From Bacillales bacterium (GTDB lineage: Bacteria; Bacillota; Bacilli; Bacillales; DASSOY01), in the NCBI GenBank assembly GCA_035700025.1, contig DASSOY010000072.1:80771-144770 (forward strand): a stretch of DNA of 64,000 bases, written 5' to 3'. Both the position numbers and the translations under genes were made by a program. The notes beneath the pieces were generated by a model. That model searched no databases. It saw only the letters and a program-made list of their open reading frames with translations, and was not told the origin of the DNA. This document shows positions 7,996-57,874 of this stretch, in pieces. Positions within the stretch are counted from its first letter, which is position 1. Each line of letters starts with the position of its first letter.

Positions 7996-8016
7996 GGTAG
8001 AAAGAGTTTGATCTAC

Positions 8017-8030
8017 TTGAAACATTTCAA
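8017..8030. promoter_or_regulatory. Perfect 6-2-6 palindrome abutting the korAB promoter (candidate operator)
   Basis: TTGAAA-CA-TTTCAA lies 6 nt upstream of the -35. It contains the TGAA-N4-TTCA core shared with Rex-type boxes, but the outer positions do not match. Confidence 0.3.
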
Positions 8031-8035
8031 AAGGG

Positions 8036-8064
8036 TTGAATATTGTGACGAAAAAGGCTATATT
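8036..8064 (+). promoter_or_regulatory. Sigma-A type promoter of korAB
   Basis: TTGAAT (8036-8041), 17 nt spacer, TATATT (8059-8064). Confidence 0.5.
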
Positions 8065-8123
8065 GAAATCGTTTAGGAGTATTTCTTTTGTTAGCGAAAT
8101 ATTCCGAAAAAAGGGGTGTGACG

Positions 8124-36048: not shown

Positions 36049-37122
36049 ATGAACGAAGGATGGAACGCTATGGACGATTTTCAAGTGCCGGAAACATCGA
36101 TTGGACAAGTGTTGACGGAACAGCCTCCGATTATCGATGTTCGGACACCGAAAGAATTTGAACAGTTTCGGATCCCCGGAGCGATCAACATTCCACTTTT
36201 TTCGAACGATGAAAGGGTGCGGATCGGGACCACTTACACGCAAGATAGCAAAGAGGCGGCGGTGAAGCTCGGGTTAACTTTTTTTTCCGAAACCGCACGG
36301 CACTTTTATGACCGTTGCAAATCTGTGTACGAGAAACAACAAGCGCCTCTCGTCATCCATTGTTGGCGCGGGGGGATGAGAAGTCTTTCCGTTGTTTCTT
36401 TCTTGAACGCGTTAGGCCTCCCGTGCATGCAGTTGCAAGGCGGGATTCGCTCGTTTCGCCGCAAAATCGTCGCAGATCTTGAGCAAATGGCCGATCGCCT
36501 TCCTCCCTTCATCGTTGTGGAAGGCTTGACCGGCACGAAAAAGACAGTTCTGTTAACGGAACTCGAAAAGCAAGGTTATCCGGTGCTCAACATCGAACCG
36601 ATGGCGGGACACCGCGGTTCGACGTTCGGTGCCATTGGATTGTCGCAAACGAGCCAAAAGCAGTTTGAGTGCATGCTTTGGCAACGGCTTTCCGCATTGC
36701 AAGCGGCTCCATACATTCTTATGGAAGCGGAAAGCAAACGAATCGGACGCATCCAAGTCCCTGATTTTCTCATCGCTGCGAAACAAAACGGTGAACGCAT
36801 CCGCTTGCACTATCCTTTCGAAAAACGAGTACAGTATTTGATGTCCGAATATGAGCCCGAGCAACATGAGCAGGCAATTCGACAAGCAACGAAACGAATT
36901 GAGAAGAAACTGAGCGAGGACATTCGAACGACAGCGAAGGCAGCGATGGAAGGCGGCGATTTTCGCCGCTTGACCGCCCTGCTGCTCGAACATTATTACG
37001 ATCCGAGATACCGGTATACGTCAACGCAATACGACACTCCCGTACATGAGGTAAAGATGGAATCGTTGGAGGATGGCCTACAAAAAGTAAAGCAACGGCT
37101 CGGTCGGCCGGTGTTCGCGTAA
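36049..37122 (+). CDS. selU: tRNA 2-selenouridine synthase (rhodanese plus P-loop domains)
   Basis: Rhodanese region IIDVRTPKEFEQFRIPGAINIPLFSNDERVRIGTTY with active-site loop HCWRGGMRS. P-loop-like EGLTGTKKTVLL, then MAGHRGSTFG. Confidence 0.85.
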   Translation: MNEGWNAMDDFQVPETSIGQVLTEQPPIIDVRTPKEFEQFRIPGAINIPLFSNDERVRIGTTYTQDSKEAAVKLGLTFFSETARHFYDRCKSVYEKQQAPLVIHCWRGGMRSLSVVSFLNALGLPCMQLQGGIRSFRRKIVADLEQMADRLPPFIVVEGLTGTKKTVLLTELEKQGYPVLNIEPMAGHRGSTFGAIGLSQTSQKQFECMLWQRLSALQAAPYILMEAESKRIGRIQVPDFLIAAKQNGERIRLHYPFEKRVQYLMSEYEPEQHEQAIRQATKRIEKKLSEDIRTTAKAAMEGGDFRRLTALLLEHYYDPRYRYTSTQYDTPVHEVKMESLEDGLQKVKQRLGRPVFA

Positions 37123-39505: not shown

Positions 39506-40228
39506 ATGATTCAATTCAAAAACGTTCACAAATGGTTTGGCGATTTGCACGTACTCAACGGCATCAACTTGAAGATCGATGAAGGAGAAGTTGTCGTCAT
39601 TGTCGGTCCGAGCGGATCGGGAAAGAGCACGTTGATTCGTTGCATTAACGGGTTGGAAAGGTTTCAGAAAGGAAATCTTGAAGTCAACGGTAAAGCGCTC
39701 GAAGATAAGAAGATTCAGCTCAACGAACTGCGCAAAGAAATTAGCATGGTGTTTCAACATTTTAATCTATATCCTCATATGTCCGTTTTGGACAATGTGA
39801 CGTTTGCTCCGCGCAAAGTGCTGAAAATTCCGCGGCAAGAAGCCGAACTGCAAGCAAAAGAACAGTTAAGCAAAGTTGGTATTCTCGATAAGGCAAATGC
39901 CAAGCCCGACCAATTGTCCGGAGGGCAAAAGCAACGCGTGGCGATCGCCCGCGGATTGGCGATGAAACCGAAAATCTTCTTGTTCGACGAACCGACTTCG
40001 GCTCTCGATCCGGAAATGATTAAGGAAGTGCTTGACGTGATGAAACTGTTGGCAACCGAAGGTTCGACCATGGTGGTTGTCACGCACGAAATGGGGTTTG
40101 CCCGGGAGGTTGCCGACCGGGTGATTTTCATGGATGACGGCGCAATTGTGGAAGAAAACACGCCGGAAGCATTTTTCCAACATCCGAAGGAGGAACGAGC
40201 GAAGGCGTTTTTGAGCAAAATTTTGTAA
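39506..40228 (+). CDS. Polar amino acid ABC transporter, ATP-binding protein
   Basis: Walker [10 protein letters not shown], signature [16 protein letters not shown] and Walker [13 protein letters not shown]. Confidence 0.92.
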
Positions 40229-40272
40229 GCGCCTATGCTCTTTTCCATAAATAAGAAGGGGGAAGATCCAAA

Positions 40273-41127
40273 ATGAAAAAATCAATCTTATTGCTTTTGA
40301 CGCTCGTGTTCACGATGGGCCTCGTTTTATCGGCCTGTGAATCGTCGGGGTCAAGCGGAGGCGAAGCGAAGGATACATTGCAACAAATCAAAGATCGCGG
40401 CAAGCTGATCGTCGGCGTGAAATATGATGTTAACTTGTTTGGCTTAAAAGATCCGAAAACCGGTAAAGTCGAGGGCTATGACGCCGATTTAATGCGCGCA
40501 TTGGCGAAACATATTTTCGGCGAAGACAAAAAGCTGGAAGACATTTTAGAATTTAAGCAAGTCAACTCGAAAACGCGCTTTGAAATGGTCAACAACGGAG
40601 AAATTGACATGGCTTCCGCTACCGCAACGATTACGCCTGAACGCGAAGAACGCGTCGATTTCAGCAACATTTATTTTATTGCAGGACAGTCGCTTTTGGT
40701 GAAAAAAGGAAGCCCGATCAAAAGCATCGACGATCTCGGTCCGGACACGACAGTCATTGCCGTGAAAGGCTCGACGAGCGAAAAGAATATTAAGGAAAAA
40801 GCACCAGACGCGCCGGTTAAATTGTTTGACGATTATGCTCAAGCATTCAGCGCCTTGAAAGCTGGGAAAGGTGATACGTTGACGACCGACAACGCCATTT
40901 TGCTCGGTATGCACAAGGAAGACCCGAATTATGTTTTGACCGGCGGTTTATTCACGTCCGAACCGTACGGCATGATCTTCCGGGAAGACGATGATGAATT
41001 TAGAAAATACGTCAATGATTTCTTGGATGAACTGAAATCGTCCGGCAAACTGGCAGAAATTTATAAAAAATGGTTTGGCGAAGCACCGCCTGAAGATATT
41101 TTAAAAGAAAACACGATGCTGAAATAA
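40273..41127 (+). CDS. Amino acid ABC transporter substrate-binding lipoprotein
   Basis: Lipobox LVLSAC, then a family-3 SBP (GKLIVGVKYDVNLFG, TITPEREERVDFS). Confidence 0.9.
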   Translation: MKKSILLLLTLVFTMGLVLSACESSGSSGGEAKDTLQQIKDRGKLIVGVKYDVNLFGLKDPKTGKVEGYDADLMRALAKHIFGEDKKLEDILEFKQVNSKTRFEMVNNGEIDMASATATITPEREERVDFSNIYFIAGQSLLVKKGSPIKSIDDLGPDTTVIAVKGSTSEKNIKEKAPDAPVKLFDDYAQAFSALKAGKGDTLTTDNAILLGMHKEDPNYVLTGGLFTSEPYGMIFREDDDEFRKYVNDFLDELKSSGKLAEIYKKWFGEAPPEDILKENTMLK

Positions 41128-41186
41128 CAGCCATCACAAGGGCCGGTGTAAACGCCGGCCCTATCGTTTGAAAAGGGGAAGTAGAA

Positions 41187-41843
41187 ATGGATTTTGCCGC
41201 TGTGTTTTCACATCTGGACCTTTATTGGTCAGGTTTTTTGCGAACGTTACTGACAAGCGCCATTGCGGTCGTTTTAAGCCTCATCCTCGGCTTGATCGTG
41301 GCGGCATTAAGAGTATCGGGCGTCAAGCCGCTCGCTTTTTTCGCCCGCTGGTATGTCGAGTTTTTGCGGAACACGCCGTTGCTCGTTCAAGTCTTTTTCT
41401 TTTATTATGCGTTGCCGCAACTTCATCTTCCATTTTTGAATTTCAACGGCTTTCAAGCTGGCGTACTCGGCTTGAGCTTTTATACCGCGGCTTACGTGGC
41501 GGAAATTGTCCGAGCCGGCATTCAATCGATTGAGGCCGGCCAAATGGAGGCCGCACGCGCCTCTGGACTGACATACGTGCAAGCCATGGTGTACATTATC
41601 TTTCCGCAGGCGTTCCGTATCGTGATTCCGCCGCTCGGCACTGAATATATCAATACGGTGAAAAACTCGGCGATTCTCGCTTTTTTTGCCGGGGCTGATC
41701 TTATGTACGTCGCTGATACGCTGCAAGGGAGCACAGGAGCGGTATTTGCCGTGTACATCACCGCTGGCCTTTTTTATTTGCTCATTACGATTCCGTTAAG
41801 CGTATTCGTTAATTTCTTGGAAAAAAAGCTTTTGGTCGCGTGA
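41187..41843 (+). CDS. Amino acid ABC transporter permease
   Basis: His/Glu/Gln/Arg-type permease with EAA-like loop EAARASGLTYVQAMVYIIFPQA. Confidence 0.9.
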   Translation: MDFAAVFSHLDLYWSGFLRTLLTSAIAVVLSLILGLIVAALRVSGVKPLAFFARWYVEFLRNTPLLVQVFFFYYALPQLHLPFLNFNGFQAGVLGLSFYTAAYVAEIVRAGIQSIEAGQMEAARASGLTYVQAMVYIIFPQAFRIVIPPLGTEYINTVKNSAILAFFAGADLMYVADTLQGSTGAVFAVYITAGLFYLLITIPLSVFVNFLEKKLLVA

Positions 41844-41853
41844 GGTGATGGAA

Positions 41854-42513
41854 ATGGACTTAATTATCGATGCTTACAGTTGGACAAATTTGCAGTTTTT
41901 GGCAAAGGGCATTTTGCTTACTTTGCTGTTGGCTTTCGTGACGATTGTGATCAGTTTTGTCCTCGGTGCGCTGCTCGCGATTTTTCGCTATAGCAAAACG
42001 CCGTTTCTCGGACACTTTGCTTTCCTTTACACGGAAGTCATTCGAAACACCCCGCTCATTTTAATTTTGTTTTTTACGTATTTCGGTTTGCCGCAACTAA
42101 ACTTGCCGTTTGATGTTCCGCTGTTTTGGAAGTTGGCGATCGGGTTGATCATTTTCGAGATCAGTCAGTTGGCGGAAATTGTTCGCGGGGGGCTGAACTC
42201 GATTGAAGACGGCCAATTGGAAGCAGCGCAATCCCAAGGGGTCACGTATTTGCAAATGTTAAACCATATTATTTTGCCCCAGGCTTTTAAACGGATGATT
42301 CCAGCGATCGTCGGTCAATTCATTACCATCGTCAAGGATACGTCCTATACTGCAATGTTCGGTCTTTTGGAGATCTTAAACCGCGCGCAAATCATTTGGA
42401 ATCATCAATTAAACTTTATCTTTCCGATCATCGTTTTGGTAGCCGTTATTTATTTCGTTATTAATTTCGGTTTATCCTCGTTCAGCATTAGGCTCGAAAA
42501 GAAATTAAGTTGA
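41854..42513 (+). CDS. Amino acid ABC transporter permease (second)
   Basis: EAAQSQGVTYLQMLNHIILPQA. ATG 41854 is 8 nt after GAGG; 41845 and 41848 are alternative starts. Confidence 0.88.
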   Translation: MDLIIDAYSWTNLQFLAKGILLTLLLAFVTIVISFVLGALLAIFRYSKTPFLGHFAFLYTEVIRNTPLILILFFTYFGLPQLNLPFDVPLFWKLAIGLIIFEISQLAEIVRGGLNSIEDGQLEAAQSQGVTYLQMLNHIILPQAFKRMIPAIVGQFITIVKDTSYTAMFGLLEILNRAQIIWNHQLNFIFPIIVLVAVIYFVINFGLSSFSIRLEKKLS

Positions 42514-42598: not shown

Positions 42599-43072
42599 TT
42601 ATTTGCTTTCGCCGGCACGTCTGTCGAGAAGCGAGCCGAACCGCGACTCATCGAAAAAGGAACGATAAGGGGCAAGATCAATTTGTTTTCGTTCGAGCGT
42701 TTTGATCAACCATCGGTGATCCTTTTTCGGGGTTGCGAGAATGTATCCGCGCACGATCAAGTCTTGATCGATTTTCGCTGCTCGTTCCCGGATGGCGAGT
42801 TCGCCGATTTTTGCGGCGATTTTGTGCCTGGCGAGGTCACGGAACAGTTGGGGCACCGGAGCGACGAGCTCTTCGAGAAGCTGCTTTTGTTCCGGCGTCC
42901 ATAAATGTTTCGTCTCGTTTACGTAATGCTCTTGCCAATCCATGATCGACCGGCCGTCTTCTTTCGGAAGTTTTTTCAAAAATTTGCGGAACATGAAAAA
43001 CCCGCCGATCGCCATGAAACCGACCATGCAAACGGTCCAAAAGGCGATGAACCACATGAATAAATCCGTCAT
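42599..43072 (-). CDS. YneK-like (DUF2621-type) membrane-anchored protein
   Basis: ATG 43072 follows GAAGAGGGGAA. MTDLFMWFIAFWTVCMVGFMAIGGFFMF is the TM segment, followed by a soluble domain. Its position after ccdC matches yneK in B. subtilis. The family name is from memory. Confidence 0.65.
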   Translation of the reverse strand: MTDLFMWFIAFWTVCMVGFMAIGGFFMFRKFLKKLPKEDGRSIMDWQEHYVNETKHLWTPEQKQLLEELVAPVPQLFRDLARHKIAAKIGELAIRERAAKIDQDLIVRGYILATPKKDHRWLIKTLERKQIDLAPYRSFFDESRFGSLLDRRAGESK

Positions 43073-43350
43073 CCGGATTCCCCTCTTCAAATAAACTCTC
43101 ATCCGTACGCTATCGCCATTATAGACGCCGTGATCCCGAAAAATCAAGCCGAATCGCCGTTTCCTGGAAGATTGACATAACTCAGCTTATGTTAATGCTG
43201 TAACTGTTGCCGAAATGGCAAAATCTGAGTCGGTTTGAATAGAACAGTTGATAACTTGGCGATAGAACAGTTTATGGACTATAACAGCCTGTGTTTCAGA
43301 CTGATACAGCGTTATACGGCATCTGCATAAATATACATAAATGAATGAAG

Positions 43351-43396
43351 TTATACACATTTATCCACAACGACAAGTTATACACAGTTGTCCACA
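43351..43396 (+). repeat. Cluster of four same-orientation DnaA-box-like 9-mers arranged as a 22 nt imperfect direct repeat
   Basis: TTATACACA (43351), TTATCCACA (43361, perfect consensus), TTATACACA (43378) and TTGTCCACA (43388). The units AGTTATACACATTTATCCACAA and AGTTATACACAGTTGTCCACAA are 20/22 identical and separated by CGACA. Confidence 0.6.
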
Positions 43397-43401
43397 AAGG
43401 C

Positions 43402-43478: not shown

Positions 43479-43575
43479 TGGCGGGACCGTGTGGGAATCG
43501 AACCCACCGGAGACGGCACGCGCCTCCCGCAGGGCTTTGAAGGCCCGGGGGGACACCAGCACCCCAGCCGGCCCC
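43479..43575 (-). tRNA. selC: tRNA-Sec (anticodon UCA)
   Basis: The minus strand reads GGGGCCGGCTGGGGTGCTGGTGTCCCCCCGGGCCTTCAAAGCCCTGCGGGAGGCGCGTGCCGTCTCCGGTGGGTTCGATTCCCACACGGTCCCGCCA. Anticodon loop is CTTCAAA (TCA is the complement of 43538-43540). Extra arm is a 7 bp stem, GGAGGCG/CGTCTCC. T arm is GTGGG-TTCGATT-CCCAC. The long acceptor stem ends in encoded CCA. Total length 97 nt. Confidence 0.88.
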
Positions 43576-43596
43576 GAGAATCCGGAAGGGAATTTT

Positions 43597-43626
43597 ATTA
43601 TAAGGGCTCGAAAAAAGAAAAAGCAA
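43597..43626 (-). promoter_or_regulatory. Candidate promoter of selC
   Basis: On the minus strand: TTGCTT, 18 nt spacer, TATAAT, about 15-20 nt upstream of the mature tRNA 5' end. Confidence 0.45.
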
Positions 43627-43637
43627 GGAAAAGAACA

Positions 43638-43646
43638 TGGTATAAT
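43638..43646 (+). promoter_or_regulatory. Extended -10 promoter of selB
   Basis: TGgTATAAT, about 37 nt before the selB GTG. No good -35. It sits back to back with the selC promoter. Confidence 0.5.
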
Positions 43647-43682
43647 GCCGATACAAACATGGGAAACGCGGAGGTGTCGGAT

Positions 43683-45599
43683 GTGAAGCACTATACGGTC
43701 GGCATGGCGGGGCATATTGATCACGGGAAAACGGCGTTGACGAAGGCTTTGACCGGCGTCGACACCGATCGATTGAAAGCGGAAAAAGAACGAGGCGTAT
43801 CGATTGAGCCGGGGTACGCCCGACTCGATTTGGATGAGGAAATGCAAGTTTCGATCATTGACGTGCCGGGCCATGAACGTTTTATTCGACAAATGATCGC
43901 CGGGGTGGCCGGCATTGATCTCGTTGTTCTCGTCGTGGCAGCCGATGAAGGCGTGATGCCGCAAACGGAAGAACATTTGGAAATCTTGACTTATCTCGGC
44001 GTCGAAAACGGCATCGTCGTGATCACGAAATGCGAGAAGGCCGATGAGGAGATTCTCGAGCTCGTGAAAGAGGACGTCCGAGAAACGTTAAGCGACTGCT
44101 CATTGGCGGAAGCCGAAATCGTGTGCGTGGACAGCCTGTCCGGACGCGGCATGGCGACGTTGAAACAGCTGTTTCGAAAAAAACTGCCCGGAGTGGCGCC
44201 GCGAAAAAGGCAAGGGCCGTTGCGTCTGCCGATTGATCAAGTGTTTACGATCCACGGTCAAGGAACGATCGTGCGCGGCACGATCGTCGAGGGGACGGTA
44301 AAGGAAGGAGAAACGTTGACGGTCTATCCCGAAAGGCAGTCGGTACGCGTACGGCAAATTCAAGTGCAGCATGAACGGGTGAAACAGGCCGGCGCCGGAC
44401 AGCGGGCAGCGATCAACGTTAGCGGCTTGTCTAAGCAAGAGCTGCATCGCGGCGACGTGTTGGTCGGTTCGGACGCTGATTGGACGACGAAGCGACTCGA
44501 TGTGAAGGTAACCGCTTCCCGCAAGCTGCGACACCACGTGAAGCAACGAGCCCCGATTCGCCTTCATATCGGCACCGCACAGGCGAAAGGGAAGATGGTT
44601 TTTTTCGACCGAAAACAGTTGGAAGCCGGGGAAGAAGCTTACGTTCAGCTGCAGTTGGAAGAGCCGATTGTCGCTGTGAATGGCGATCGTTTCATCATAA
44701 GGCGGCCGACACCGGCGGAAACGATTGGCGGCGGGAAAGTCATCGAAGCGAAAGCGGAGAAACACCGGTTTGGCGAAGAAACGATCCAACGATTGAAAAA
44801 GAGAAGTGAAGGTACGCTGGAAGAAGCGGTGCTTGATCGGTTTGAACAGGAAGGCGCCCTCGCGGAACAGCAGATCTCCGATGCGTTTCGGGTGTATGGC
44901 GAACCGCTGAAGCAGCTGTTGGCAACGCTGCATGAGCGCGGGGTGATTCGGTTGATCGGTGATGGTCAATGGGTGTACCGACGTGCGTTCGATGAAGTCC
45001 AAAACGACATGATTGACCAATTGAAAGACTATCATGAACGATATCCGTTGCGCCGCGGCATTGAGAAAGCGGAAATGCTCAACCGTTTGAAAGGATCGGA
45101 AACGGTGAAGGAAGCGGCTCTTGAAGCGCTCGTTGCGAGCGAACGCGTGAACAGGCACGGACCTGTATTGGCATTGGCGGCGTTCGTGCCGGCAATGCCG
45201 AAAGCTTTCGAAAAACGATTGAAGCGGTTGACGGCGGAAATGGAGGAAGCGGGGCTCGAAGTCGATCATTGGCAGGCGCTCGTCGAGATGCACGGCCTGC
45301 CGGAAACGGTCGCCGCGGATTTTCGTGCGTTTTTGCTGGAGCAAAACAAGGCGGTGAAGCTCGGTGACTTTGCGTTAGTTCACCGGGAGGCGTTCCGTTC
45401 TGCGGTGCGTCGTTTATTCGAACATACCGGCGGGGCCCCGTTTGATGTGAAAACGGCGAAAGCGGCGCTTGACGTATCACGCAAATATTTGATTCCGCTT
45501 CTTGAGCGAATGGACGCGATGCAAATGACCGTTCGCACCGGAAATGAACGAAAATGGATCGATCGCGGTGTGCGCGGTTGGCTGAAACGAGAAAACTGA
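43683..45599 (+). CDS. selB: Selenocysteine-specific translation elongation factor SelB
   Basis: GTG 43683 is 6 nt after GGAGGTG. (M)KHYTVGMAGHIDHGKTALTKALTG, DVPGHERF and VITKCE are the GTPase motifs. An EF-Tu-like domain II/III follows, then a roughly 280 aa C-terminal extension of the kind that binds SECIS. The ORF-track start at 43464 runs across the tRNA-Sec gene. Confidence 0.92.
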   Translation: MKHYTVGMAGHIDHGKTALTKALTGVDTDRLKAEKERGVSIEPGYARLDLDEEMQVSIIDVPGHERFIRQMIAGVAGIDLVVLVVAADEGVMPQTEEHLEILTYLGVENGIVVITKCEKADEEILELVKEDVRETLSDCSLAEAEIVCVDSLSGRGMATLKQLFRKKLPGVAPRKRQGPLRLPIDQVFTIHGQGTIVRGTIVEGTVKEGETLTVYPERQSVRVRQIQVQHERVKQAGAGQRAAINVSGLSKQELHRGDVLVGSDADWTTKRLDVKVTASRKLRHHVKQRAPIRLHIGTAQAKGKMVFFDRKQLEAGEEAYVQLQLEEPIVAVNGDRFIIRRPTPAETIGGGKVIEAKAEKHRFGEETIQRLKKRSEGTLEEAVLDRFEQEGALAEQQISDAFRVYGEPLKQLLATLHERGVIRLIGDGQWVYRRAFDEVQNDMIDQLKDYHERYPLRRGIEKAEMLNRLKGSETVKEAALEALVASERVNRHGPVLALAAFVPAMPKAFEKRLKRLTAEMEEAGLEVDHWQALVEMHGLPETVAADFRAFLLEQNKAVKLGDFALVHREAFRSAVRRLFEHTGGAPFDVKTAKAALDVSRKYLIPLLERMDAMQMTVRTGNERKWIDRGVRGWLKREN

Positions 45600-45620
45600 C
45601 GGGCATTCCCGTCAGTTTTT
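45596..45620. terminator. Bidirectional terminator shared by convergent selB and selD
   Basis: CTGACGGG-CATT-CCCGTCAG, flanked by AAAA and TTTTT. The selB TGA (45597-45599) and the selD TGA (complement of 45612-45614) lie in opposite arms. Confidence 0.8.
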
Positions 45621-46658
45621 CACGGTCAACGTGTGCGGTCCCGCTTTCACGACTTCGCCGATGATTGCCGTATCGCCGCTGCCCGCCGCTTTCATTGCTT
45701 TCACATAAGTTTCCGCTGCCCGCCGCGGCAGGCTGACGAGCAACCCGCCGGACGTGACTGCGTCGCAAAGGATCCATTGCATCACTTCGTCGATATCGTC
45801 CGCGTAGGCTACGTCATTTTTTAACCATGCGTGGTTTTTCTTTGTGCCGCCCGGCACTTGCTTTAATTCCGCCAACACGCGCGTCCCTTCGAGAACGGGG
45901 ATGCTGCCGGCATCGATGATGAAACTGACGCCGCTTCCTTTCGCCATCTCGCACGCGTGGCCAAGCAAGCCGAAGCCGGTGACGTCCGTCACGGCATGCA
46001 CATCTACGCCTTTTAACAACCTTGCGGCATCCGCGTTCAACGTCGTCATCACGTCCGTGACTTTATTCAACCGGTCCGCGTTCAGTTTTCCATTTTTCAA
46101 AGCCGTTGTCTGAATGCCGACGCCGATCGGCTTCGTCAGGACGAGTACATCGCCTTCTTTCGCTCCGACGTTTCGGTGAAAGCGTTCCGGATGGACGATC
46201 CCTGTCACCGACAGCCCGAACTTCGGTTCCTGATCATCGATCGAGTGGCCGCCGACGACGACTGCGCCAGCTTCTTCTACTTTTATCGCCGATCCTTGCA
46301 AAATGTCCAGCAATATAGACTCGTCCAACTGCTTGATCGGAAATCCGACGAGATTGAGTGCCGTTTTCGGTTCGCCGCCCATTGCGTAAACGTCGCTTAG
46401 TGCATTGGCGGCGGCGATCTGCCCGAATGTGTACGGGTCATCGACGATCGGCGTAAAGAAATCGACCGTTTGGATGAGGGCAATCTCGCCGCTGATTTTG
46501 TAAACGCCGGCATCGTCGCTCGTCTCGGTTCCGACAAGAAGATTCGGGTCTTTCGTTGTCTTCGGAAGGTGACGCAAAACTTGCGTCAAATCGCTCGGTG
46601 CGATTTTGCAGCCTCAACCGCCTTTCGAGCTCAACGTCGTCAATCGGATGTTCGCCAT
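45612..46658 (-). CDS. selD: Selenide, water dikinase SelD, itself a selenoprotein (Sec15 encoded by TGA)
   Basis: Upstream of ORF 45612..46589 the same frame reads ATG(46658) A N I R L T T L S S K G G TGA G C K I A P S D L T Q V L R H L. This is the SelD N-terminal motif G-[C/U]-G-C-K with TGA (complement of 46614-46616) at the catalytic Cys/Sec position. RBS GGTGAGG. Total 348 codons. AIR-synthase-like body (DDAGVY, DFFTPIVDDP). Confidence 0.9.
46571..46587 (-). promoter_or_regulatory. Candidate bacterial SECIS hairpin of selD
   Basis: mRNA UGACGCA-AGUUU-UGCGUCA (7 bp stem). The core GACGCAAGUUUUGCGUC given by these coordinates starts 26 nt after the UGA, and the flanking U-A pair lies just outside them. 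The loop G lies about 34 nt from the UGA. Confidence 0.6.
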
Positions 46659-46694
46659 CGTTGCCTCACCGCCTTTTCGTTAATCTCCATGCTC

Positions 46695-46723
46695 ATCTTA
46701 TTTTCTCACGAACAAACCGTCAA
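46695..46723 (-). promoter_or_regulatory. Candidate sigma-A promoter of selD
   Basis: On the minus strand: TTGACG, 17 nt spacer, TAAGAT, about 35 nt upstream of the selD ATG. Confidence 0.4.
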
Positions 46724-46754
46724 ATTCAATTGCGGAGGCAACGGTTTCATATTT

Positions 46755-46783
46755 TTTACGCAACAAGACGGGTATTATACAAT
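46755..46783 (+). promoter_or_regulatory. Candidate sigma-A promoter of the selW-like/selA/trxB-like unit
   Basis: TTTACG (46755-46760), 17 nt spacer, TACAAT (46778-46783). Confidence 0.5.
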
Positions 46784-46807
46784 AGAAAGAAAAAGGAGGG
46801 ATGCTCT

Positions 46808-47059
46808 GTGAAGTATCATGTGTCGATCGAATTTTGCATGCAATGAAACTACGCGCCAAAAGCCGCGAGTTTCGCGGAACAGTTATTCACTCATTATCGG
46901 GGGCAGTCGAACAGCATCGAACGGATCGAGCTGATCCCCGGTTCCGGAGGCGCCTTCGAAGTCAAGGTCAACGGGAAGCTGTTGTATTCAAAATACGAGA
47001 CGGGCGTGTTCCCGGAAGCCGAAAAGGTAATCAAGCAGATGGAGGCGATTGCCGGCTAA
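46808..47059 (+). CDS. SelW/Rdx-family selenoprotein (CxxU redox motif; Sec13 encoded by TGA)
   Basis: GTG 46808 is 8 nt after AAGGAGG. The frame reads (M)KYHVSIEFCMQ-TGA-NYAPKAASFAEQLFTHYRGQSNSIERIELIPGSGGAFEVKVNGKLLYSKYETGVFPEAEKVIKQMEAIAG, then TAA at 47057-47059. The TGA at 46844-46846 completes a C-M-Q-U motif, and LIPGSGGAFEV and LYSK..TG.FPE are typical of bacterial SelW-like proteins. The ORF track shows only fragments (46556..46846 and an out-of-frame 46801..47088). Confidence 0.85.
46863..46877 (+). promoter_or_regulatory. Candidate bacterial SECIS hairpin of the selW-like gene
   Basis: CCGCG-AGUUU-CGCGG starts 16 nt after the UGA, with the loop G about 23 nt from the UGA. The loop is the same as in the selD hairpin. 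Confidence 0.6.
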
Positions 47060-47084
47060 TCGCGATCCCCGTATGGAGGAAGAT

Positions 47085-48488
47085 ATGAATCGATTAATGC
47101 GCATGCTGCCTGCCGTGCACGTTTTGCAGGAACATCCAAAATTCAATGAATGGGCACAGCGTTTCGAGATTTCCGAGACATTTTTGACAGAGGAGCTGCG
47201 CGCGGAACTTCAACAACTGCGCGAAGCTTTATTGGCCGGAACGTGGAAAGGCGAACCGACGGCTGAAGCGTTGACGGCGCATCTTTTCGAAAAATTGGCC
47301 GAGCGGCTCGAGTCGTATCGTGCGAACAAGCTGACGCCGGTGATCAACGGCACCGGTGTCGTCCTCCATACGAATTTAGGGAGGGCCAGGTTGAGCGACG
47401 AGGCTGTACAGGCGGTCACGAGAGCGGCGGTGAATTACTCGAGTTTGGAGTTCAATCGTGAAACAGGAAAGCGCGGGTCGCGCCACGATCTTGTTGAACC
47501 GTATGTTTGCCGGTTGACTGGCGCGGAAGCGGCCATGGTCGTGAACAATAACGCGGCTGCGGTTTTTCTTGTTTTGTCGGCTTTGGCTTCAGATCGCAAA
47601 GTGATCGTTTCGCGTGGTCAACTCGTCGAAATCGGCGGATCTTTTCGCGTGTCTTCGATCATGGAGGAAAGCGGCGCGCTGCTCGTAGAAGTAGGCACGA
47701 CGAATAAGACGCGATTGCATGACTACGAGGAAGCGGTCGATGAAGAAACCGCGATGATTATGAAAGTACATACGAGTAATTTCACGATTCGCGGGTTCAC
47801 GGAAACCGTGGATACCGCCCCGTTGGCAAAATTGGCCGCCGATCGCGAATGCGTTTATTACGAAGATCTCGGGAGCGGAGCGATTTACGATTTCCGCGCA
47901 GAAGGCATCGGGAAAGAGCCGCTCGTTGCTGAAGTGCTCGCGAAAGGCGCAGATCTCGTTTCGTTCAGCGGCGACAAGCTTTTCGGCGGCCCGCAAGCGG
48001 GGATTATCGCTGGAAAAAAACAGCTAATCGAGCGGTTGAAGAAGCATCAATTGGCCCGTGTTCTGCGTGTTGATAAAATGACTTTGGCCGCGCTCGAGGC
48101 AACGATGAAAGCTTATCTATTCGGAAAAGCGCAAACAACGATTCCGGTCATCCGCGATATGACCGCTACTGTTGCCGACATCCGTGCGCGTGCAGAACGA
48201 TTTGTTTCGTACGCCAATCGTACCGTTCCAGCGTTTCGGTTCGCTGTAAGAGAAGAAACGTCCAAGGTCGGGGGCGGGACAATGCCGGATGTCGCTTTGC
48301 CAACTTGCGGCGTCACCATTGTACATCCGCAATGGACAACGCAAATGGTTTTGGATCACTTGCGAAGTCACGAACCACCTGTGATCGGCCGCGTCGCCTC
48401 CGAAAAAGCGTTCCTCGATTTTCGAACGATTCGCGAAGACGAGTGCGAATCGGTATTGTCGGCGCTTCGCGAACCCGTCGATCAATAG
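47085..48488 (+). CDS. selA: L-seryl-tRNA(Sec) selenium transferase SelA
   Basis: ATG 47085 follows GGAGGA. MNRLMRMLPAVHVLQ, NNNAAAVFL and the PLP-lysine context SFSGDKLFGGPQAGIIAGKK. Confidence 0.92.
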   Translation: MNRLMRMLPAVHVLQEHPKFNEWAQRFEISETFLTEELRAELQQLREALLAGTWKGEPTAEALTAHLFEKLAERLESYRANKLTPVINGTGVVLHTNLGRARLSDEAVQAVTRAAVNYSSLEFNRETGKRGSRHDLVEPYVCRLTGAEAAMVVNNNAAAVFLVLSALASDRKVIVSRGQLVEIGGSFRVSSIMEESGALLVEVGTTNKTRLHDYEEAVDEETAMIMKVHTSNFTIRGFTETVDTAPLAKLAADRECVYYEDLGSGAIYDFRAEGIGKEPLVAEVLAKGADLVSFSGDKLFGGPQAGIIAGKKQLIERLKKHQLARVLRVDKMTLAALEATMKAYLFGKAQTTIPVIRDMTATVADIRARAERFVSYANRTVPAFRFAVREETSKVGGGTMPDVALPTCGVTIVHPQWTTQMVLDHLRSHEPPVIGRVASEKAFLDFRTIREDECESVLSALREPVDQ

Positions 48489-48558
48489 AGGCCGTTTTAC
48501 TTCACGGCCGTTGAGGGAATATTATGGAGAAGAACGACGAACCGAGGAGGTATGGCGA

Positions 48559-49518
48559 ATGTACAAAACGATCGTCGTCGGAACTGGACCGGCGGGCTTG
48601 ACGGCGGCCATTTACTTGGCACGCGCCGATATGGCCCCGCTCGTCATCGAAGGACCGGAACCGGGCGGGCAACTGACGCTCACGACTGAAGTAGAGAACT
48701 TTCCGGGCTTTCCCGACGGCATCATGGGTCCGGCATTGATGGATGACATGAGAAAACAAGCTGAGCGTTTCGGCGCGACGTTCGAAAGAGGTTATGTGAA
48801 ATCCGTCGATTTTTCAAACAAACCGTTTTCGCTGACGGTTGATTCGCTCGGGACGTTTGAAGGGGAGTCGGTGATTATTTCTACCGGCGCATCGGCAAAA
48901 ATGCTCGGCGTTCCGGGAGAGAGTGAAAACGTCGGCAAAGGCGTCAGCACGTGCGCGACATGTGACGGCTTCTTTTTTCGCGGCAAAAAAATTGTTGTCG
49001 TCGGCGGTGGCGATTCGGCGATGGAGGAAGCAACGTTTTTGACGAAATTCGCTTCCGAAGTGACGGTCATTCATCGCCGCGACGAGCTGCGCGCGTCGAA
49101 AATCATGCAAAATCGGGCGAAGGAAAACGAAAAAATTAAATGGAAGCTGAACGCGCAAGTGAAGGAAATTTTGGCGGATAACGGGAAAGTGAGTGCCGTT
49201 CAATTGGTGAATCAGAACGGCGTCGAAGAAACGTTAGCCACCGACGGCGTTTTCATTGCGATCGGTCATACGCCGAACACGGAGTTCTTGAAAGGGCAGG
49301 TCGGGATGGATGATAAAGGTTATTTGAACGTGAAACCGGGAACGACGGAAACGACGGTTGACGGGGTGTTTGCCTGCGGAGACGTACAAGATTTCACGTA
49401 CCGTCAAGCGATCACGGCGGCCGGAACCGGTTGCATGGCGGCGATGGATTGCCAGCGTTATCTCGAGGGAAACGCGTTCACGGACTGGAGCCTAAGCACG
49501 GATCAAGCAAAAAAATAA
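48559..49518 (+). CDS. trxB: Thioredoxin-disulfide reductase (low-Mr TrxB type)
   Basis: ATG 48559 is 8 nt after GAGGAGG. VVGTGPAGLTAAIYLAR, redox centre CATCDG, GGGDSAMEEA and GVFACGDV. It lies 70 nt after selA on the same strand, with no intervening terminator seen. Confidence 0.9.
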   Translation: MYKTIVVGTGPAGLTAAIYLARADMAPLVIEGPEPGGQLTLTTEVENFPGFPDGIMGPALMDDMRKQAERFGATFERGYVKSVDFSNKPFSLTVDSLGTFEGESVIISTGASAKMLGVPGESENVGKGVSTCATCDGFFFRGKKIVVVGGGDSAMEEATFLTKFASEVTVIHRRDELRASKIMQNRAKENEKIKWKLNAQVKEILADNGKVSAVQLVNQNGVEETLATDGVFIAIGHTPNTEFLKGQVGMDDKGYLNVKPGTTETTVDGVFACGDVQDFTYRQAITAAGTGCMAAMDCQRYLEGNAFTDWSLSTDQAKK

Positions 49519-49526
49519 AGTCGCGG

Positions 49527-49560
49527 CGTTCTTTTCCATTCGGAAGAGAACGTTTTTTTT
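49527..49560 (+). terminator. Rho-independent terminator after trxB
   Basis: CGTTCTTTTCC-ATTC-GGAAGAGAACG followed by T8. Confidence 0.85.
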
Positions 49561-49664: not shown

Positions 49665-52400
49665 ATGATGGCAAAAACGGAAAACGACCTTTTCAAAGCT
49701 CGCGCTTCCTTTCAAGTAGACGGCCAAAAGTATAACTACTACCGTCTTCAAGCGTTGGAAGAAGCGAACGTTGGAAACGTTTCACGCCTGCCTTACTCGA
49801 TCAAAGTCTTACTGGAATCGGTATTAAGGCAGTATGATGGCAAAACGATTAAGAAGGAACATGTTGAGAACTTGGCAAACTGGGGCACCGACAAGATGAA
49901 GTCGGACGTCGACGTGCCTTTCAACCCTTCCCGAATCATTTTGCAAGACTTCACGGGTGTACCGGCAGTTGTTGATCTCGCTTCGTTGAGAAAAGCCATG
50001 GCGGACATGAAAGGCGACCCAGAGGAAATCAACCCGGAAATCCCGGTTGACCTCGTTGTCGACCACTCCGTGCAAGTGGACCGTTTCGGATCGGTTGACG
50101 CGTTGAAATTCAACATGGAACGTGAATTCGAACGGAACATGGAACGTTACAAATTTTTGAAATGGGCGAAAAATGAACTCGATAACTATAGTGCGGTTCC
50201 GCCGGCTACGGGTATCGTGCACCAAGTCAATCTTGAATACTTAGCTTCGGTTGTCCACGGTGTAGAAGAAGAAAACGGTGAAAAAATCGCCTATCCGGAT
50301 ACACTTCTTGGAACGGACTCGCATACGACGATGATCAACGGTCTCGGCGTACTTGGCTGGGGCGTCGGCGGAATCGAGGCAGAAGCCGGCATGCTCGGAC
50401 AACCGTCTTACTTCCCGGTACCGGAAGTGATCGGCGTACGGATTACCGGTGCGATGCCGAAAGGAACGACAGCAACGGATCTTGCGTTGCACGTGACGAA
50501 GAAATTGCGAGCCAAAGGCGTTGTCGGCAAATTTGTGGAGTTCTTCGGCGAAGGACTTTCGGAAATGTCACTTGCGGACCGCGCAACGATTTCGAACATG
50601 TCGCCTGAAAACGGTGCGACGGCTACGTTCTTCCCGGTTGACGAAGAAACGTTGAACTACTTGCGTTTGACGGGCCGCTCCGAAGAGCAAATTCGCCTCG
50701 TTGAAGCGTATTGCAAAGAAAACGGCTTGTTCTATACGCCAGAAGCGCAAGATCCGAATTTCACGAATATCGTAGAACTTGATCTTTCTGAAGTCGAGCC
50801 GAGTTTGTCCGGACCGAAACGTCCGCAAGATTTGATTAAGCTTACCGACATGAAGGACGAATTCAATCAAATGTTGACTCGCGAAGCGGGCAACCATGGT
50901 CTTGGACTTGACGAAAATGAAATTAAGAAAGAAGTGGAAGTCGTTCATCCAGACGGTGAAAAGTCTGTCTTGAAAACAGGGGCCGTAGCAGTTGCTGCCA
51001 TCACGAGCTGTACGAACACTTCGAACCCGAGCGTTATGATCGGCGCCGGCTTGTTGGCGAAAAAAGCGGTTGAGAAAGGCTTGAAAGTTCCGCGTTACGT
51101 GAAAACCAGCTTGGCACCGGGGTCGAAAGTCGTTACGGATTACTTGAACCATTCCGGTTTAATGCCTTATCTCGATCAGCTTGGCTTCAGCCTTGTTGGT
51201 TACGGCTGTACGACTTGTATCGGTAACTCCGGGCCGCTTCCAGACGAAGTGGAAAAAGCGATCGAAGAAAACGACATGGCTGTCACTTCCGTATTGTCCG
51301 GTAACCGTAACTTTGAAGGCCGGATTCATCCGCTTGTGAAAGCGAATTACTTGGCTTCGCCGCCGCTCGTTGTCGCCTATGCACTTGCCGGCAGCGTCAA
51401 TTTCGACTTGAAAACCGAATCGTTCGGCAAAGACAAAGACGGAAACGACGTATACTTTGACGACCTGTGGCCGTCGAGTGAAGAAGTACAGCAATATATG
51501 AGTGAAAGCTTGAGCCCTGAGTTGTTCAAGAAAGAGTACTCGCGCGTGTTTGATGAAAACGAACGTTGGAATGAACTCAACACAAGCGAAGGTACGTTAT
51601 ACGACTGGGACGAAGATTCCACTTACATTCAAAACCCGCCGTTCTTCGAAAACCTTTCGAAAGAACCGGGTGAAATTGAAACGCTTCAAGGCTTGCGCGT
51701 TATTGGTAAATTCGGAGACTCGGTAACGACGGACCATATTTCACCTGCCGGCGCCATTGCCAAAGACAGTCCTGCAGGCAAATATTTGATCGAAAAAGGC
51801 GTTCGCCCGATTGATTTTAACTCGTACGGTTCCCGTCGCGGTAACCACGAAGTGATGATGCGCGGGACGTTTGCCAACATCCGGATCCGCAACCAGATTG
51901 CTCCGGGTACCGAAGGCGGCTGGACGACTTACTGGCCGACTGGCGAAGTGATGTCGATCTTTGATGCCGCGATGAAATATCAGCAGAACGATACGGGCCT
52001 CGTTGTTCTTGCCGGTAAAGATTACGGCATGGGCTCTTCGCGTGACTGGGCTGCAAAAGGTACGAACTTGCTTGGCATTAAAACGGTCATTGCGGAAAGC
52101 TACGAACGGATTCACCGTTCCAATCTTGCATTGATGGGGGTTCTTCCGTTGCAATTCCAAGCAGGAGAAAGCGCTGAAAGCCTTGGATTGAGCGGGAAAG
52201 AAACGATTCAAGTGGAATTGCCGAAAGACTTGAAGCCTCGTCAAAACGTAACGGTTACGGCTGTTGACGAAGACGGCAATAAAAAGACGTTTGAAGCGAT
52301 TGTTCGTTTCGACAGTGATGTCGAAATTGACTATTATCGCCACGGTGGCATCTTGCAAATGGTGCTTCGCAACAAATTGCAACAACCGAACCACGCATAA
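49665..52400 (+). CDS. citB: Aconitate hydratase A (aconitase / iron-regulatory RNA-binding protein)
   Basis: 911 aa. [26 protein letters not shown], the Fe-S Cys ligands ([20 protein letters not shown]), and SGNRNFEGR. Confidence 0.97.
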
Positions 52401-55836: not shown

Positions 55837-55884
55837 TGCCTGCGCTGCCGACGCTATACAATGGCAAACGAAGGGAGTGTCACG

Positions 55885-56961
55885 GTGAGACGTTTGTATT
55901 TAGTCGGGGCGGGCCACGCCCACCTGTATGTGCTGAACCGGCTGCGGCGCGAGAGGCTTCCGGGGGTTGAAGTATCGCTTCTTACGCCGGAAACGGTGAA
56001 ATTCAGCAGGGAAATGGCTGCCGGTTATATCGAAGGTTTATATACGAAAGCACAAATGGGTTTGGATATTGGGGAGCTGGCGAAACAGGCCGGTGCGAAT
56101 CATATAAAAGCTGCGGTGATGTCGATCGATCCACTGCAGAAAGCGGTTTTAACCGAAAAAGGCGGGTACCTCGAATACGATGTCATTTCTTTCGACATCG
56201 GGGCGTTGACGGAAGCGACGGATCTCCCGGGCGTATTGACGGCCGCCGAAATGCTGCGGCCGAATGAAAAGCTTCCGGACGCGCTGGACCGGCTGATTGC
56301 GGCGGAGCAGCTCGTGATCGCCGGCGACGGAGATGCTTGTGCGGAAATTGCGTTCGCCTTGCAGGCGAGGAGAATGAAGGAAGGAAAGACACCGGTTCGT
56401 TGGATCGGTGGATTCAACAAAGGCACCGCTTTCCGCGCGTTTCCTCCTGATGCTGAGCAATGGGCGCAGGATGCCGGCATTTTGCTGCATAAAAATAGTC
56501 GAGTACGGCGGGCAGGAGGCGGAAAGCTGGAGACGGACAACGGCGCCGTCCACTTGTACGATCGATTGCTCTGGATTTATCCGCCGCGCCCTCACAAGTT
56601 GTTTCGTGCGGCACTCCCTGTGGACAGCGACGGGTATTTGCTCGTCGAAAAGACGTTGCAAGTGAAGTCGTTTCCTTCCGTCTTTGGAGCTGGTGACTGC
56701 ATCACAGTGAACCGGCATTCCCATATTGCGCATGAGGGACGGTATGCGGTAGACGAAGGGCCGGTGTTATGGAAAAATTTGCGCGGTTATTTCACGGACG
56801 GAGAAGGCCGAACTTTCGCACCGGCGAATGCCGCGTATTGTTTTTCGACGGGAAACAAGCAAGCGGTGTTGCGTCGGAAGCGAAAGGTGATTCGAGCCGG
56901 TTGGGTGCATCGGTTGAAAAGTTACGTCGACCGCACGTACGTAAAAAAATCTTCTCCGTAG
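55885..56961 (+). CDS. FAD-dependent pyridine nucleotide-disulfide oxidoreductase family protein (GAGHAH type, of the kind found fused or adjacent to SelD)
   Basis: GTG 55885 is 7 nt after GGGAG. (M)RRLYLVGAGHAHLYVL is the Rossmann start, followed by a second dinucleotide fold LVIAGDGDACAEIAFAL and the C-terminal FGAGDC. Confidence 0.8.
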   Translation: MRRLYLVGAGHAHLYVLNRLRRERLPGVEVSLLTPETVKFSREMAAGYIEGLYTKAQMGLDIGELAKQAGANHIKAAVMSIDPLQKAVLTEKGGYLEYDVISFDIGALTEATDLPGVLTAAEMLRPNEKLPDALDRLIAAEQLVIAGDGDACAEIAFALQARRMKEGKTPVRWIGGFNKGTAFRAFPPDAEQWAQDAGILLHKNSRVRRAGGGKLETDNGAVHLYDRLLWIYPPRPHKLFRAALPVDSDGYLLVEKTLQVKSFPSVFGAGDCITVNRHSHIAHEGRYAVDEGPVLWKNLRGYFTDGEGRTFAPANAAYCFSTGNKQAVLRRKRKVIRAGWVHRLKSYVDRTYVKKSSP

Positions 56962-56980: not shown

Positions 56981-57301
56981 TTACACCGTTTCGAGGAAAT
57001 TTCTTACTTGATCCGGTGTTTTCGCATTAGCGCTGTGCAAATGGGCGATTTTTTTCCCGTCCTTAAAAACGAGCAAACTCGGAATCCCTAACACTTCATA
57101 CGTTTCGGCAAGTTCGGGAAATTCGTCGCGGTTGACTTCATACCATTTTTTATCATCATAATCGTTCACGATGTCGCCGATGAACATGTCCATGCGGCGG
57201 CAATCCGGGCACCAGCCGGCCTCGAATTTCATGATCGTTTCTTGGTCGCTTTCAATCAGCTGCCGAAATTGTTCGACAGACGTTACTTTTTCCAAAGTCA
57301 T
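56981..57301 (-). CDS. Thioredoxin-family protein
   Basis: 106 aa. WCPDC active site and GIPSLLVFKDGK. Confidence 0.88.
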   Translation of the reverse strand: MTLEKVTSVEQFRQLIESDQETIMKFEAGWCPDCRRMDMFIGDIVNDYDDKKWYEVNRDEFPELAETYEVLGIPSLLVFKDGKKIAHLHSANAKTPDQVRNFLETV

Positions 57302-57430: not shown

Positions 57431-57874
57431 ATGGCATCGACATTTCGGGAGGTACGCATAAAAAGTACGACCGTCGGCCTGAAAAGCGTCGTGGAGGCGG
57501 CTGATCACACGTTTAACTTGGACGAACCAGCGGCGATCGGCGGAACGAATACGGGACCGAACCCTCTTGAAGCGTTTCTCGGCGCACTCGCCGGATGTGA
57601 AAACGTAACGGCGCGATTCGTTGCCAAGGAAATGGATTTTGATCTTGCGGGCATGACGTTCGAGATTTCCGGCAGTTACGACAGCCGCGGGCTGAAAAGC
57701 GGGGCGGAAGTGCGTCCAAATTTTCGAACCCTCGAAATTCGCGTGAATGTGGAAACGACGGAATCGGAGGAACGGTTGAAACGGCTGCAAGAGGAAACCG
57801 ACCGCCGTTGCCCGGTTTTTTCCACGCTTGAAGCGGCCGGCATTGAGGTTTCAATCGATTGGCGAAAGGTGTAG
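57431..57874 (+). CDS. OsmC/Ohr-family peroxiredoxin-like protein
   Basis: ATG 57431. GPNPLEAFLGALAGCE and the second Cys in RRCPVF. Confidence 0.85.
   Translation: MASTFREVRIKSTTVGLKSVVEAADHTFNLDEPAAIGGTNTGPNPLEAFLGALAGCENVTARFVAKEMDFDLAGMTFEISGSYDSRGLKSGAEVRPNFRTLEIRVNVETTESEERLKRLQEETDRRCPVFSTLEAAGIEVSIDWRKV

Follow-up and report, generated by a model that had tools for sequence, protein, structure and literature searches.

The selenocysteine locus

A stretch of 64,000 nucleotides (nt) from an uncultured Bacillales bacterium (GenBank contig DASSOY010000072.1), hereafter called the window, was analyzed for genes of selenocysteine (Sec) decoding. Positions 43479 to 49518 carry a tRNA-Sec gene (selC), the genes for the Sec-specific elongation factor (selB), selenophosphate synthetase (selD), a short SelW-like selenoprotein and the selenium transferase (selA), and a thioredoxin reductase gene (trxB). 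The genes yneK and citB flank the block. Analysis of this locus and of its relatives gives us high confidence that it represents a complete, most likely functional Sec-decoding cluster, and that it has long occupied a conserved position, the slot yneK-(sspP/sspO)-citB, and is not a recent island. The membership of trxB in the module is doubtful.

Identification of the genes

The tRNA-Sec gene is located at 43479..43575 on the minus strand. ARAGORN reported a tRNA of 97 nt with anticodon UCA (TCA), a long variable arm and an encoded CCA, and the sequence scored 58.2 bits against Rfam RF01852 (gathering score 47). Its identity as tRNA-Sec is thus given by two independent methods. It is the single tRNA found by ARAGORN within the whole window. 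Alignment with six Bacillales tRNA-Sec genes revealed that all stems are kept by paired substitutions, for example U6-A88 in place of C6-G88; the T stem, read by hand, has 5 bp (GUGGG/CCCAC).

Proteins were searched with profiles after replacing the in-frame U by C, using the curated cutoffs of NCBIfam and, as a second line, Pfam architectures. All five proteins (SelB, SelD, SelW-like, SelA and TrxB) scored above their curated NCBIfam cutoffs and showed matching Pfam architectures. The selB gene (43683..45599, plus strand, 638 amino acids) begins with GTG 8 nt after GGAGG. Its product scored 367.9 bits against TIGR00475 (cutoff 242) and contains the Pfam domains GTP_EFTU (PF00009), D2 (PF03144), Beta-barrel_SelB (PF25461) and the winged-helix domains SelB-wing_2/3 (PF09106 and PF09107). 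Annotated SelB homologues occur in dozens of Bacillaceae genera. The selD gene (46658..45612, minus strand) has Sec at codon 15 (TGA at 46614-46616), where the N-terminal glycine-rich loop reads G-G-U-G-C-K with TGA as U; SelD scored 412 bits against TIGR00476 (cutoff 125) and 386 bits against NF002098. The selA gene (47085..48488, plus strand) encodes an L-seryl-tRNA(Sec) selenium transferase that scored 555.9 bits against TIGR00474 (cutoff 268) and 482 bits against PF03841, and the pyridoxal phosphate (PLP) lysine motif FSGDKLFGGPQAG is present in its translation.

The SelW-like gene of the SelW/SelT/SelH (Rdx) family (46808..47059, plus strand, GTG start) has 83 codons, with TGA (46844-46846) as codon 13 in the motif C10-M-Q-U13. 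Its product scored 76.6 bits against PF10262 (cutoff 22.6) and 62.6 bits against TIGR02174 (CXXU_selWTH; cutoff 34.2). The trxB gene (48559..49518, plus strand) encodes a low-Mr NADPH thioredoxin reductase. Judged by its score against TIGR01292 (392.3 bits, cutoff 343.45) and by the motifs CATC, GTGPAG, GGGDSA and HRRDELRA, the predicted product is a bona fide member of this class. The SelB and TrxB of the window have 100% identical NCBI entries from a metagenome-assembled genome (MAG) of a Bacillales bacterium, already named selenocysteine-specific elongation factor and thioredoxin-disulfide reductase.

These assignments agree with the original prediction made from the letters of the window, which had described a 97-nt minus-strand UCA tRNA with a long extra arm, an elongation-factor-type GTPase with a long C-terminal extension (selB), a PurM-like kinase with G-G-TGA-G-C-K (selD), an 83-codon CxxU gene, a PLP enzyme (selA) and a CATC flavoprotein. 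Its divergent, convergent, divergent arrangement of the units likewise agrees with the reading frames derived anew in this study.

Transcription units

selC and selB diverge from a spacer of about 100 nt, which contains TATAAT, putatively for selC, and, at 43638..43646 on the plus strand, a putative extended -10 element (TGGTATAAT) for selB. selB and selD converge on a hairpin at 45596-45615 (element 45596..45620; CTGACGGG-CATT-CCCGTCAG) that has T-runs on both strands and overlaps the stop codons of both genes; it is probably a bidirectional terminator. The spacer between the divergent selD and SelW-like genes measures 149 nt and has promoter-like sites on each strand. selA starts 25 nt past the stop of the SelW-like gene, and the two genes probably share a transcript. 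trxB starts 70 nt past selA, with a promoter-like site in the gap, and a strong terminator after trxB (49525-49554) is the only one of the unit SelW-like-selA-trxB. From this arrangement we infer four transcription units, namely selC, selB, selD and SelW-like-selA, the last possibly continuing into trxB.

Directly after the selA stop codon is a further hairpin (GGCCGT-TTTACTTC-ACGGCC, 48489-48512) without a T-run, and the promoter-like site of the gap (48496-48525) overlaps it. A cluster of DnaA boxes is present in the yneK-selC spacer (43348-43401). Among the eight matches to TTATCCACA (at most one mismatch) in the window, four fall inside 46 nt, as a 27-nt tandem duplication, and the cluster may be a DnaA-regulated promoter. 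A sister MAG, L006, has a similar four-box cluster (9179-9224) upstream of a Spo0E-like gene, a gene that the window does not have.

In-frame UGA codons and SECIS-like hairpins

TGA is the stop codon of 15 of the 52 genes delimited in the window. The internal TGA codons of selD and the SelW-like gene are therefore site-specific exceptions and the code is not reassigned. For comparison with relatives, a SelA scan of genome contigs gave five loci (best identity 52%), which were mapped by tblastn, with tRNAs identified by ARAGORN. Further loci came from two sister MAGs, Neobacillus niacini, Planococcus and Evansella cellulosilytica. In each of the 10 Bacillales loci examined, selD has its TGA at one and the same codon, and that of the SelW-like gene is kept in five of five, orthologues with the same TGA occurring between selD and selA in loci L005, L006, L007 and L010.

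Each of these UGA codons is followed by a hairpin resembling a bacterial Sec insertion sequence (SECIS). The selD hairpin, identified with RNAalifold (46570..46588, minus strand), has 7 bp and a GU-containing loop about 33 nt past the UGA. Its stem spans 26-44 nt after the TGA, and all 70 cells are paired across the 10 loci. The third pair appears as AU, GC, UA, UG and GU in different loci. This covariation was reached by none of 500 column shuffles, and slid registers were only 16-70% paired. At the covarying pair, one base alters a codon among Thr, Ser and Ala, and its partner, the third base of an Arg codon, changes with it synonymously, as expected where an mRNA structure is laid over coding sequence. 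Another selD hairpin, at +11 to +29, was considered as SECIS and rejected: by hand its register moves 2 nt between lineages, and RNAalifold retained the distal stem only.

The hairpin of the SelW-like gene (CCGCGA-GUU-UCGCGG, 46863..46877, plus strand), with its loop 23 nt past the UGA, was identified from an alignment of five sequences. All 30 cells are paired, with one compensatory change from CG to UA. The RNAalifold consensus for this region is an alternative fold in which the UGA itself is paired; we favour the local CCGCGA/UCGCGG hairpin over it. GU is present in both hairpin loops and is the loop feature expected of bacterial SECIS elements. The loop distance in selD lies at the far end of the range of bacterial SECIS elements.

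A scan for TGA-interrupted open reading frames, not a full bSECIS search, identified no further selenoprotein genes in the window, the other hits being spurious N- or C-terminal extensions. The view that selD and the CxxU gene are the only Sec clients visible in the window is consistent with our scan.

Several SelW-like database proteins derived from Logan and JGI assemblies (P0243-P0247) have W at the Sec position (FCMKW/FCMMW). These entries likely come from contigs translated with TGA as Trp, and such entries hide Sec codons.

The same slot in related Bacillales

The block is flanked on the left by yneK (DUF2621; 42599..43072, minus strand; PF11084, 234 bits) and on the right by the aconitase gene citB (49665..52400, plus strand, from its translation). 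Other flanking genes recognized by Pfam are CcdC (PF07301) and SirA (PF10747). The same address was found in relatives. yneK adjoins selC in loci L001 to L004, and in L001 to L007 and L010 the sel genes are followed by an aconitase 71-89% identical to CitB of the window. Halobacillus sp. MO56, Thalassobacillus cyri and two T. devorans strains have the order tkt...ccdC-yneK-selC-(histidine kinase)-selB-selD-selA-sspP-citB. The sister MAGs (GCA_035701065 and GCA_036381575) have mnmH-ldcB-ccdA-ccdC-yneK-...-selC-selB-(glycosyltransferase)-selD-SelW-like-selA-sspP-(VTT)-trxB-citB. In Evansella cellulosilytica DSM 2522 the order is selC-RNase T-selB-GGDEF-selD-SelW-like-...-selA-sspP-x-sspO-citB. 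Bacillus haikouensis (L005, 1-12700) has selD(U)-SelW-like(U)-x-selA-sspP-sspO-citB; neither selB nor tRNA-Sec was found within 8 kb of this locus, where GGDEF/EAL and helicase genes are present, and its Sec machinery either has parts elsewhere in the genome or is decaying. Overall, at least five genus-level lineages have the core block between yneK and sspP/citB, although their CitB proteins share no more than 71-75% identity.

The divergence of the block follows that of its flank. Pairwise identities of SelA, SelD and SelB follow CitB identity with Pearson coefficients of 0.92-0.94 (36 locus pairs), and the window comes nearest to the sister MAGs in its sel genes as well as in its flanks.

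A family 4 glycosyltransferase (GT4) gene adjoins selB and selD in three relatives (L006, 11895-12779; L007, 2192-3082; Planococcus, L009, 8520-9515, minus strand). It overlaps the selB stop in the sister MAGs and is not found in the window. Its best NCBIfam model is the 'GPMC system family 4 glycosyltransferase' (216-280 bits, cutoff 400), with weak matches to the selenosugar synthase SenB (71-76 bits, cutoff 300). The conserved GT4 gene might point to a selenosugar-type trait in these relatives.

In Planococcus sp. N028 (L009, 13391-13960), a 37-amino-acid 'AhpC-TSA' stub after selA reads through TGA into a ResA-like protein of about 190 amino acids with WASW-U-RC (NF041054, the WAxxUGC family, 99.8 bits, below the cutoff of 300). 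Planococcus thus keeps another client selenoprotein next to its selA.

Old resident or recent island

The original prediction regarded the block as an accessory insertion, that is, as 6 kb recently acquired into a neighbourhood otherwise like that of B. subtilis. This explanation appears unlikely on the evidence of the relatives. It draws on B. subtilis 168, which is not known to have the sel block. Moreover, tRNA genes are classic landmarks of islands and one stands at the start of the block, and the guanine-plus-cytosine (GC) content of the block is about 5 points over that of the adjacent genes. When compared with sister MAG L006, the window also has a transporter inserted between ccdC and yneK, and a prophage integrase abuts tRNA-Sec in Evansella, showing a site able to receive mobile DNA. 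Against recent acquisition, the same genes occupy the same slot in at least four other genera and two sister MAGs, the divergence of the sel genes tracks that of citB, and native sspP directly follows selA in all relatives. No integrase or transposase was found in the 64-kb window, and no direct repeats were found flanking the sel block. At the gene level, GC and GC at third codon positions of the sel genes lie inside the range of the window: GC is 0.52-0.557 compared with a gene mean of 0.501 (standard deviation 0.035; z 0.5-1.6), and similarly high values occur in genes at 55.8-62.4 kb. The island claim is therefore not upheld. The comparison proposed with it as a refutation turned out partly against it: several lineages have the block in this slot. 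Not all Sec-positive Bacillales do. The simplest reading of these sequence comparisons, and the most likely one, is that the block has resided here for long by vertical descent and that B. subtilis and similar lineages lost it.

Some observations weigh against a functional cluster of long vertical residence. The acceptor stem of the tRNA, examined by hand, has seven standard pairs and a G8/A86 mismatch at the eighth position, which is invariant in seven of seven tRNA-Sec genes. The statistics of the SelW-like hairpin are weak with five sequences, 92 of 500 shuffles equalling it. Neobacillus niacini has selB alone and elsewhere, Planococcus has selD-GT/selC-selB-selA at another site, and the yneK-citB slot is possibly a recombination hot spot. 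SelA and SelB of the window are 58-62% and 52-53% identical to those of the sister MAGs, compared with 72-73% between the sister MAGs themselves, and CitB is similar throughout (88-91%). Faster evolution, or an old homologous replacement, of the selA and selB genes of the window is conceivable. The sel block has a GC of 0.53-0.565, and the immediately adjacent genes 0.45-0.50.

The phage-type integrase gene of Evansella cellulosilytica (L010, CP002394, 1-8848) lies at 7602-8576 on the minus strand and, together with prophage genes (tail, holin and amidase), is situated directly 3' of tRNA-Sec (8752-8848, minus strand). This arrangement points to tRNA-Sec as an integration site in that species.

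Is trxB part of the module?

The inclusion of a trxB-like gene in the Sec module is not supported by the comparison with relatives, as its linkage with the sel genes is unconserved across lineages. trxB is not present in the sel loci L001 to L005, L009 and L010. In the sister MAGs L006 and L007, sspP lies between selA and trxB, and in one of them a VTT-domain gene is also found there. tblastn gave no match for sspP or sspO in the window, which has simply lost both genes. Members of the same TrxB clade (70-80% identity) are spread over many Bacillales. In Guptibacillus algicola, which is Sec-positive, the trxB of this clade adjoins hsp20 and thyA, and in Thalassobacillus devorans it directly follows arsR-arsB-arsC, in both cases away from the sel genes; homologues in unrelated contexts are 71-74% identical. 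Hence trxB is best described as an adjacent gene of doubtful membership in the Sec module. A link between TrxB and selenium is possible and draws no support from conserved linkage.

Proposed working of the cluster

The scheme proposed here is drawn by homology to E. coli. tRNA-Sec would first be charged with serine, and SelA would convert Ser-tRNA-Sec to Sec-tRNA-Sec with selenophosphate from SelD. SelB-GTP would then bind Sec-tRNA-Sec and the hairpin just 3' of the UGA in the selD and SelW-like mRNAs, and Sec would be delivered to the ribosome. Selenophosphate from SelD would also supply MnmH, the enzyme predicted to form 2-selenouridine in tRNA.

The mnmH gene (selU/ybbB; tRNA 2-selenouridine synthase) is located at 36049..37122 on the plus strand, 6.4 kb upstream of selC. 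Its product scored 337.3 bits against NF008750 (cutoff 241) and 313.5 bits against TIGR03167 (cutoff 219.75), and the gene is present at the equivalent position in sister MAG L006 (Rhodanese and AAA_SelU domains). By these profile matches MnmH is a second consumer of the selenophosphate made by SelD, one overlooked in the original prediction. The module had been called self-referential; this stands insofar as SelD itself contains a UGA-encoded Sec. The nearby mnmH is a non-Sec client of SelD and uses selenophosphate, so that SelD serves two selenium traits and the module is not closed on itself.

Another explanation gives the SelW-like protein, and possibly TrxB, a working part in selenium activation. 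The SelW-like protein would be a selenol/thiol relay of thioredoxin fold, which TrxB reduces and from which SelD receives reduced selenium. The SelW-like gene lies between selD and selA in five of 10 Bacillales loci (25 nt upstream of selA in the window), trxB follows selA after 70 nt, and the thioredoxin system is reported to carry out the first selenite-reduction step of bacterial selenoprotein synthesis (PMC8538045). The supply of reduced selenium by TrxB is chemically reasonable; gene linkage gives it no support. Halobacillus, Thalassobacillus and Planococcus possess selC, selB, selD and selA and do not have the SelW-like gene, which is therefore dispensable for the pathway. In addition, the ResA-like (WAxxUxC) selenoprotein of Planococcus stands in the equivalent place by selA, which fits a client gene parked beside the machinery, and the TrxB clade is elsewhere unlinked to sel genes. 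We consider such a relay improbable. Similarly, it is quite improbable that the SelW-like protein is a dedicated redox or selenium-carrier step, reduced by TrxB and passing selenide to SelD, or that its early UGA ties selA expression to the supply of Sec-tRNA. Finally, that the in-frame TGA codons are true stops, selD and the CxxU gene being pseudogenes or truncated genes of a decaying remnant, is hardly credible: TGA is a normal stop in this genome and gene callers truncate both reading frames, but the TGA occupies the same catalytic position in every locus compared, the frames are intact downstream, the hairpins are conserved, and selA, selB and selC are all intact. A Sec-decoding cluster with its own clients thus remains the preferred explanation, its activity being predicted from these intact and conserved parts.

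Comparison with known systems

The four components of the window are those of the E. coli machinery (selAB operon, selC and selD, with a SECIS of the fdhF type). Common to both are the C-terminal winged-helix extension of SelB, the PLP lysine of SelA and a UGA followed closely by a hairpin with GU in the loop. The sel components of E. coli are scattered over three loci, and those of the window are clustered within 5 kb. The SelD of the window has Sec where E. coli has Cys17, and the clients are SelD and the SelW-like protein in the window and formate dehydrogenase in E. coli. In Gram-positive anaerobes such as Eubacterium acidaminophilum (selD1-selA-selB-selC) the machinery likewise forms one compact Firmicute locus. 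The window differs from it in gene order and orientation (divergent, convergent, divergent), in its aerobic, spore-former-type host (Bacillales) and in the nearby mnmH.

Sec-containing SelD proteins from elsewhere, for example from Haemophilus influenzae and many others, have the same N-terminal G-x-U-G-C-K loop, and no substantive difference was found. In the window as elsewhere, this enzyme is dependent on the product of its own pathway. The SelW-like protein resembles the bacterial SelW-like/Rdx family (PF10262, TIGR02174) in being short, with an N-terminal CxxU and a thioredoxin-like fold. Its score against SelTWH_Campy (NF041051) is 82 bits (cutoff 88), which places it in a different subfamily from the Campylobacter equivalog. 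Sec-containing SelD was reported in 383 organisms as the second commonest bacterial selenoprotein family (Peng et al. 2016; PMC5029168, Table 3), and three selenoproteins have already been listed for Firmicutes/Bacillales (Zhang et al. 2006; PMC1794560, Table 2). Our literature search found no description of the placement of a SelW-like gene between selD and selA, nor of this Bacillales locus or a link between SelW and TrxB.

The locus adds one more example to a well-known kind of system, and its conserved chromosomal address is mildly interesting. The system itself is textbook knowledge and little new is learned on mechanism. Sec decoding is widespread in Bacillaceae-type spore-formers, and at least one slot (yneK-sspP-citB) is conserved across genera. 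The conserved slot would make B. subtilis a loss lineage, and it is a clean place to study how the 21st amino acid is gained and lost. Such aerobes may retain the full machinery for very few visible clients, namely SelD, the SelW-like protein and, in other loci, a ResA-like protein. Being compact (5 kb) and equipped with clients of its own, the block could be used as a portable Sec cassette in a Gram-positive chassis.

Other genes of the window

A four-gene ATP-binding cassette (ABC) transporter of the polar-amino-acid type (ATPase, binding protein and two permeases) lies at 39506-42513, between ccdC and yneK. These two genes are adjacent in sister MAG L006, Halobacillus and Thalassobacillus, with no ABC transporter between them. 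The transporter is not clearly linked to selenium: it is of the generic polar-amino-acid type and all equivalog scores are below cutoff.

Three redox genes are located 6 kb downstream of citB (55861-56961; 56981-57301, minus strand; 57431-57874). No homologues of this trio were found across the related loci compared. One of its products is a pyridine-nucleotide-disulfide oxidoreductase similar to the 'N-terminal-to-SelD' family, with 185 bits against TIGR03169 (cutoff 310, not reached). Its thioredoxin-like protein has the motif WCPDC, and its OsmC-like protein, in the Cys form, scored 75 bits against the 'OsmC-related (seleno)protein' model, short of the cutoff of 95.

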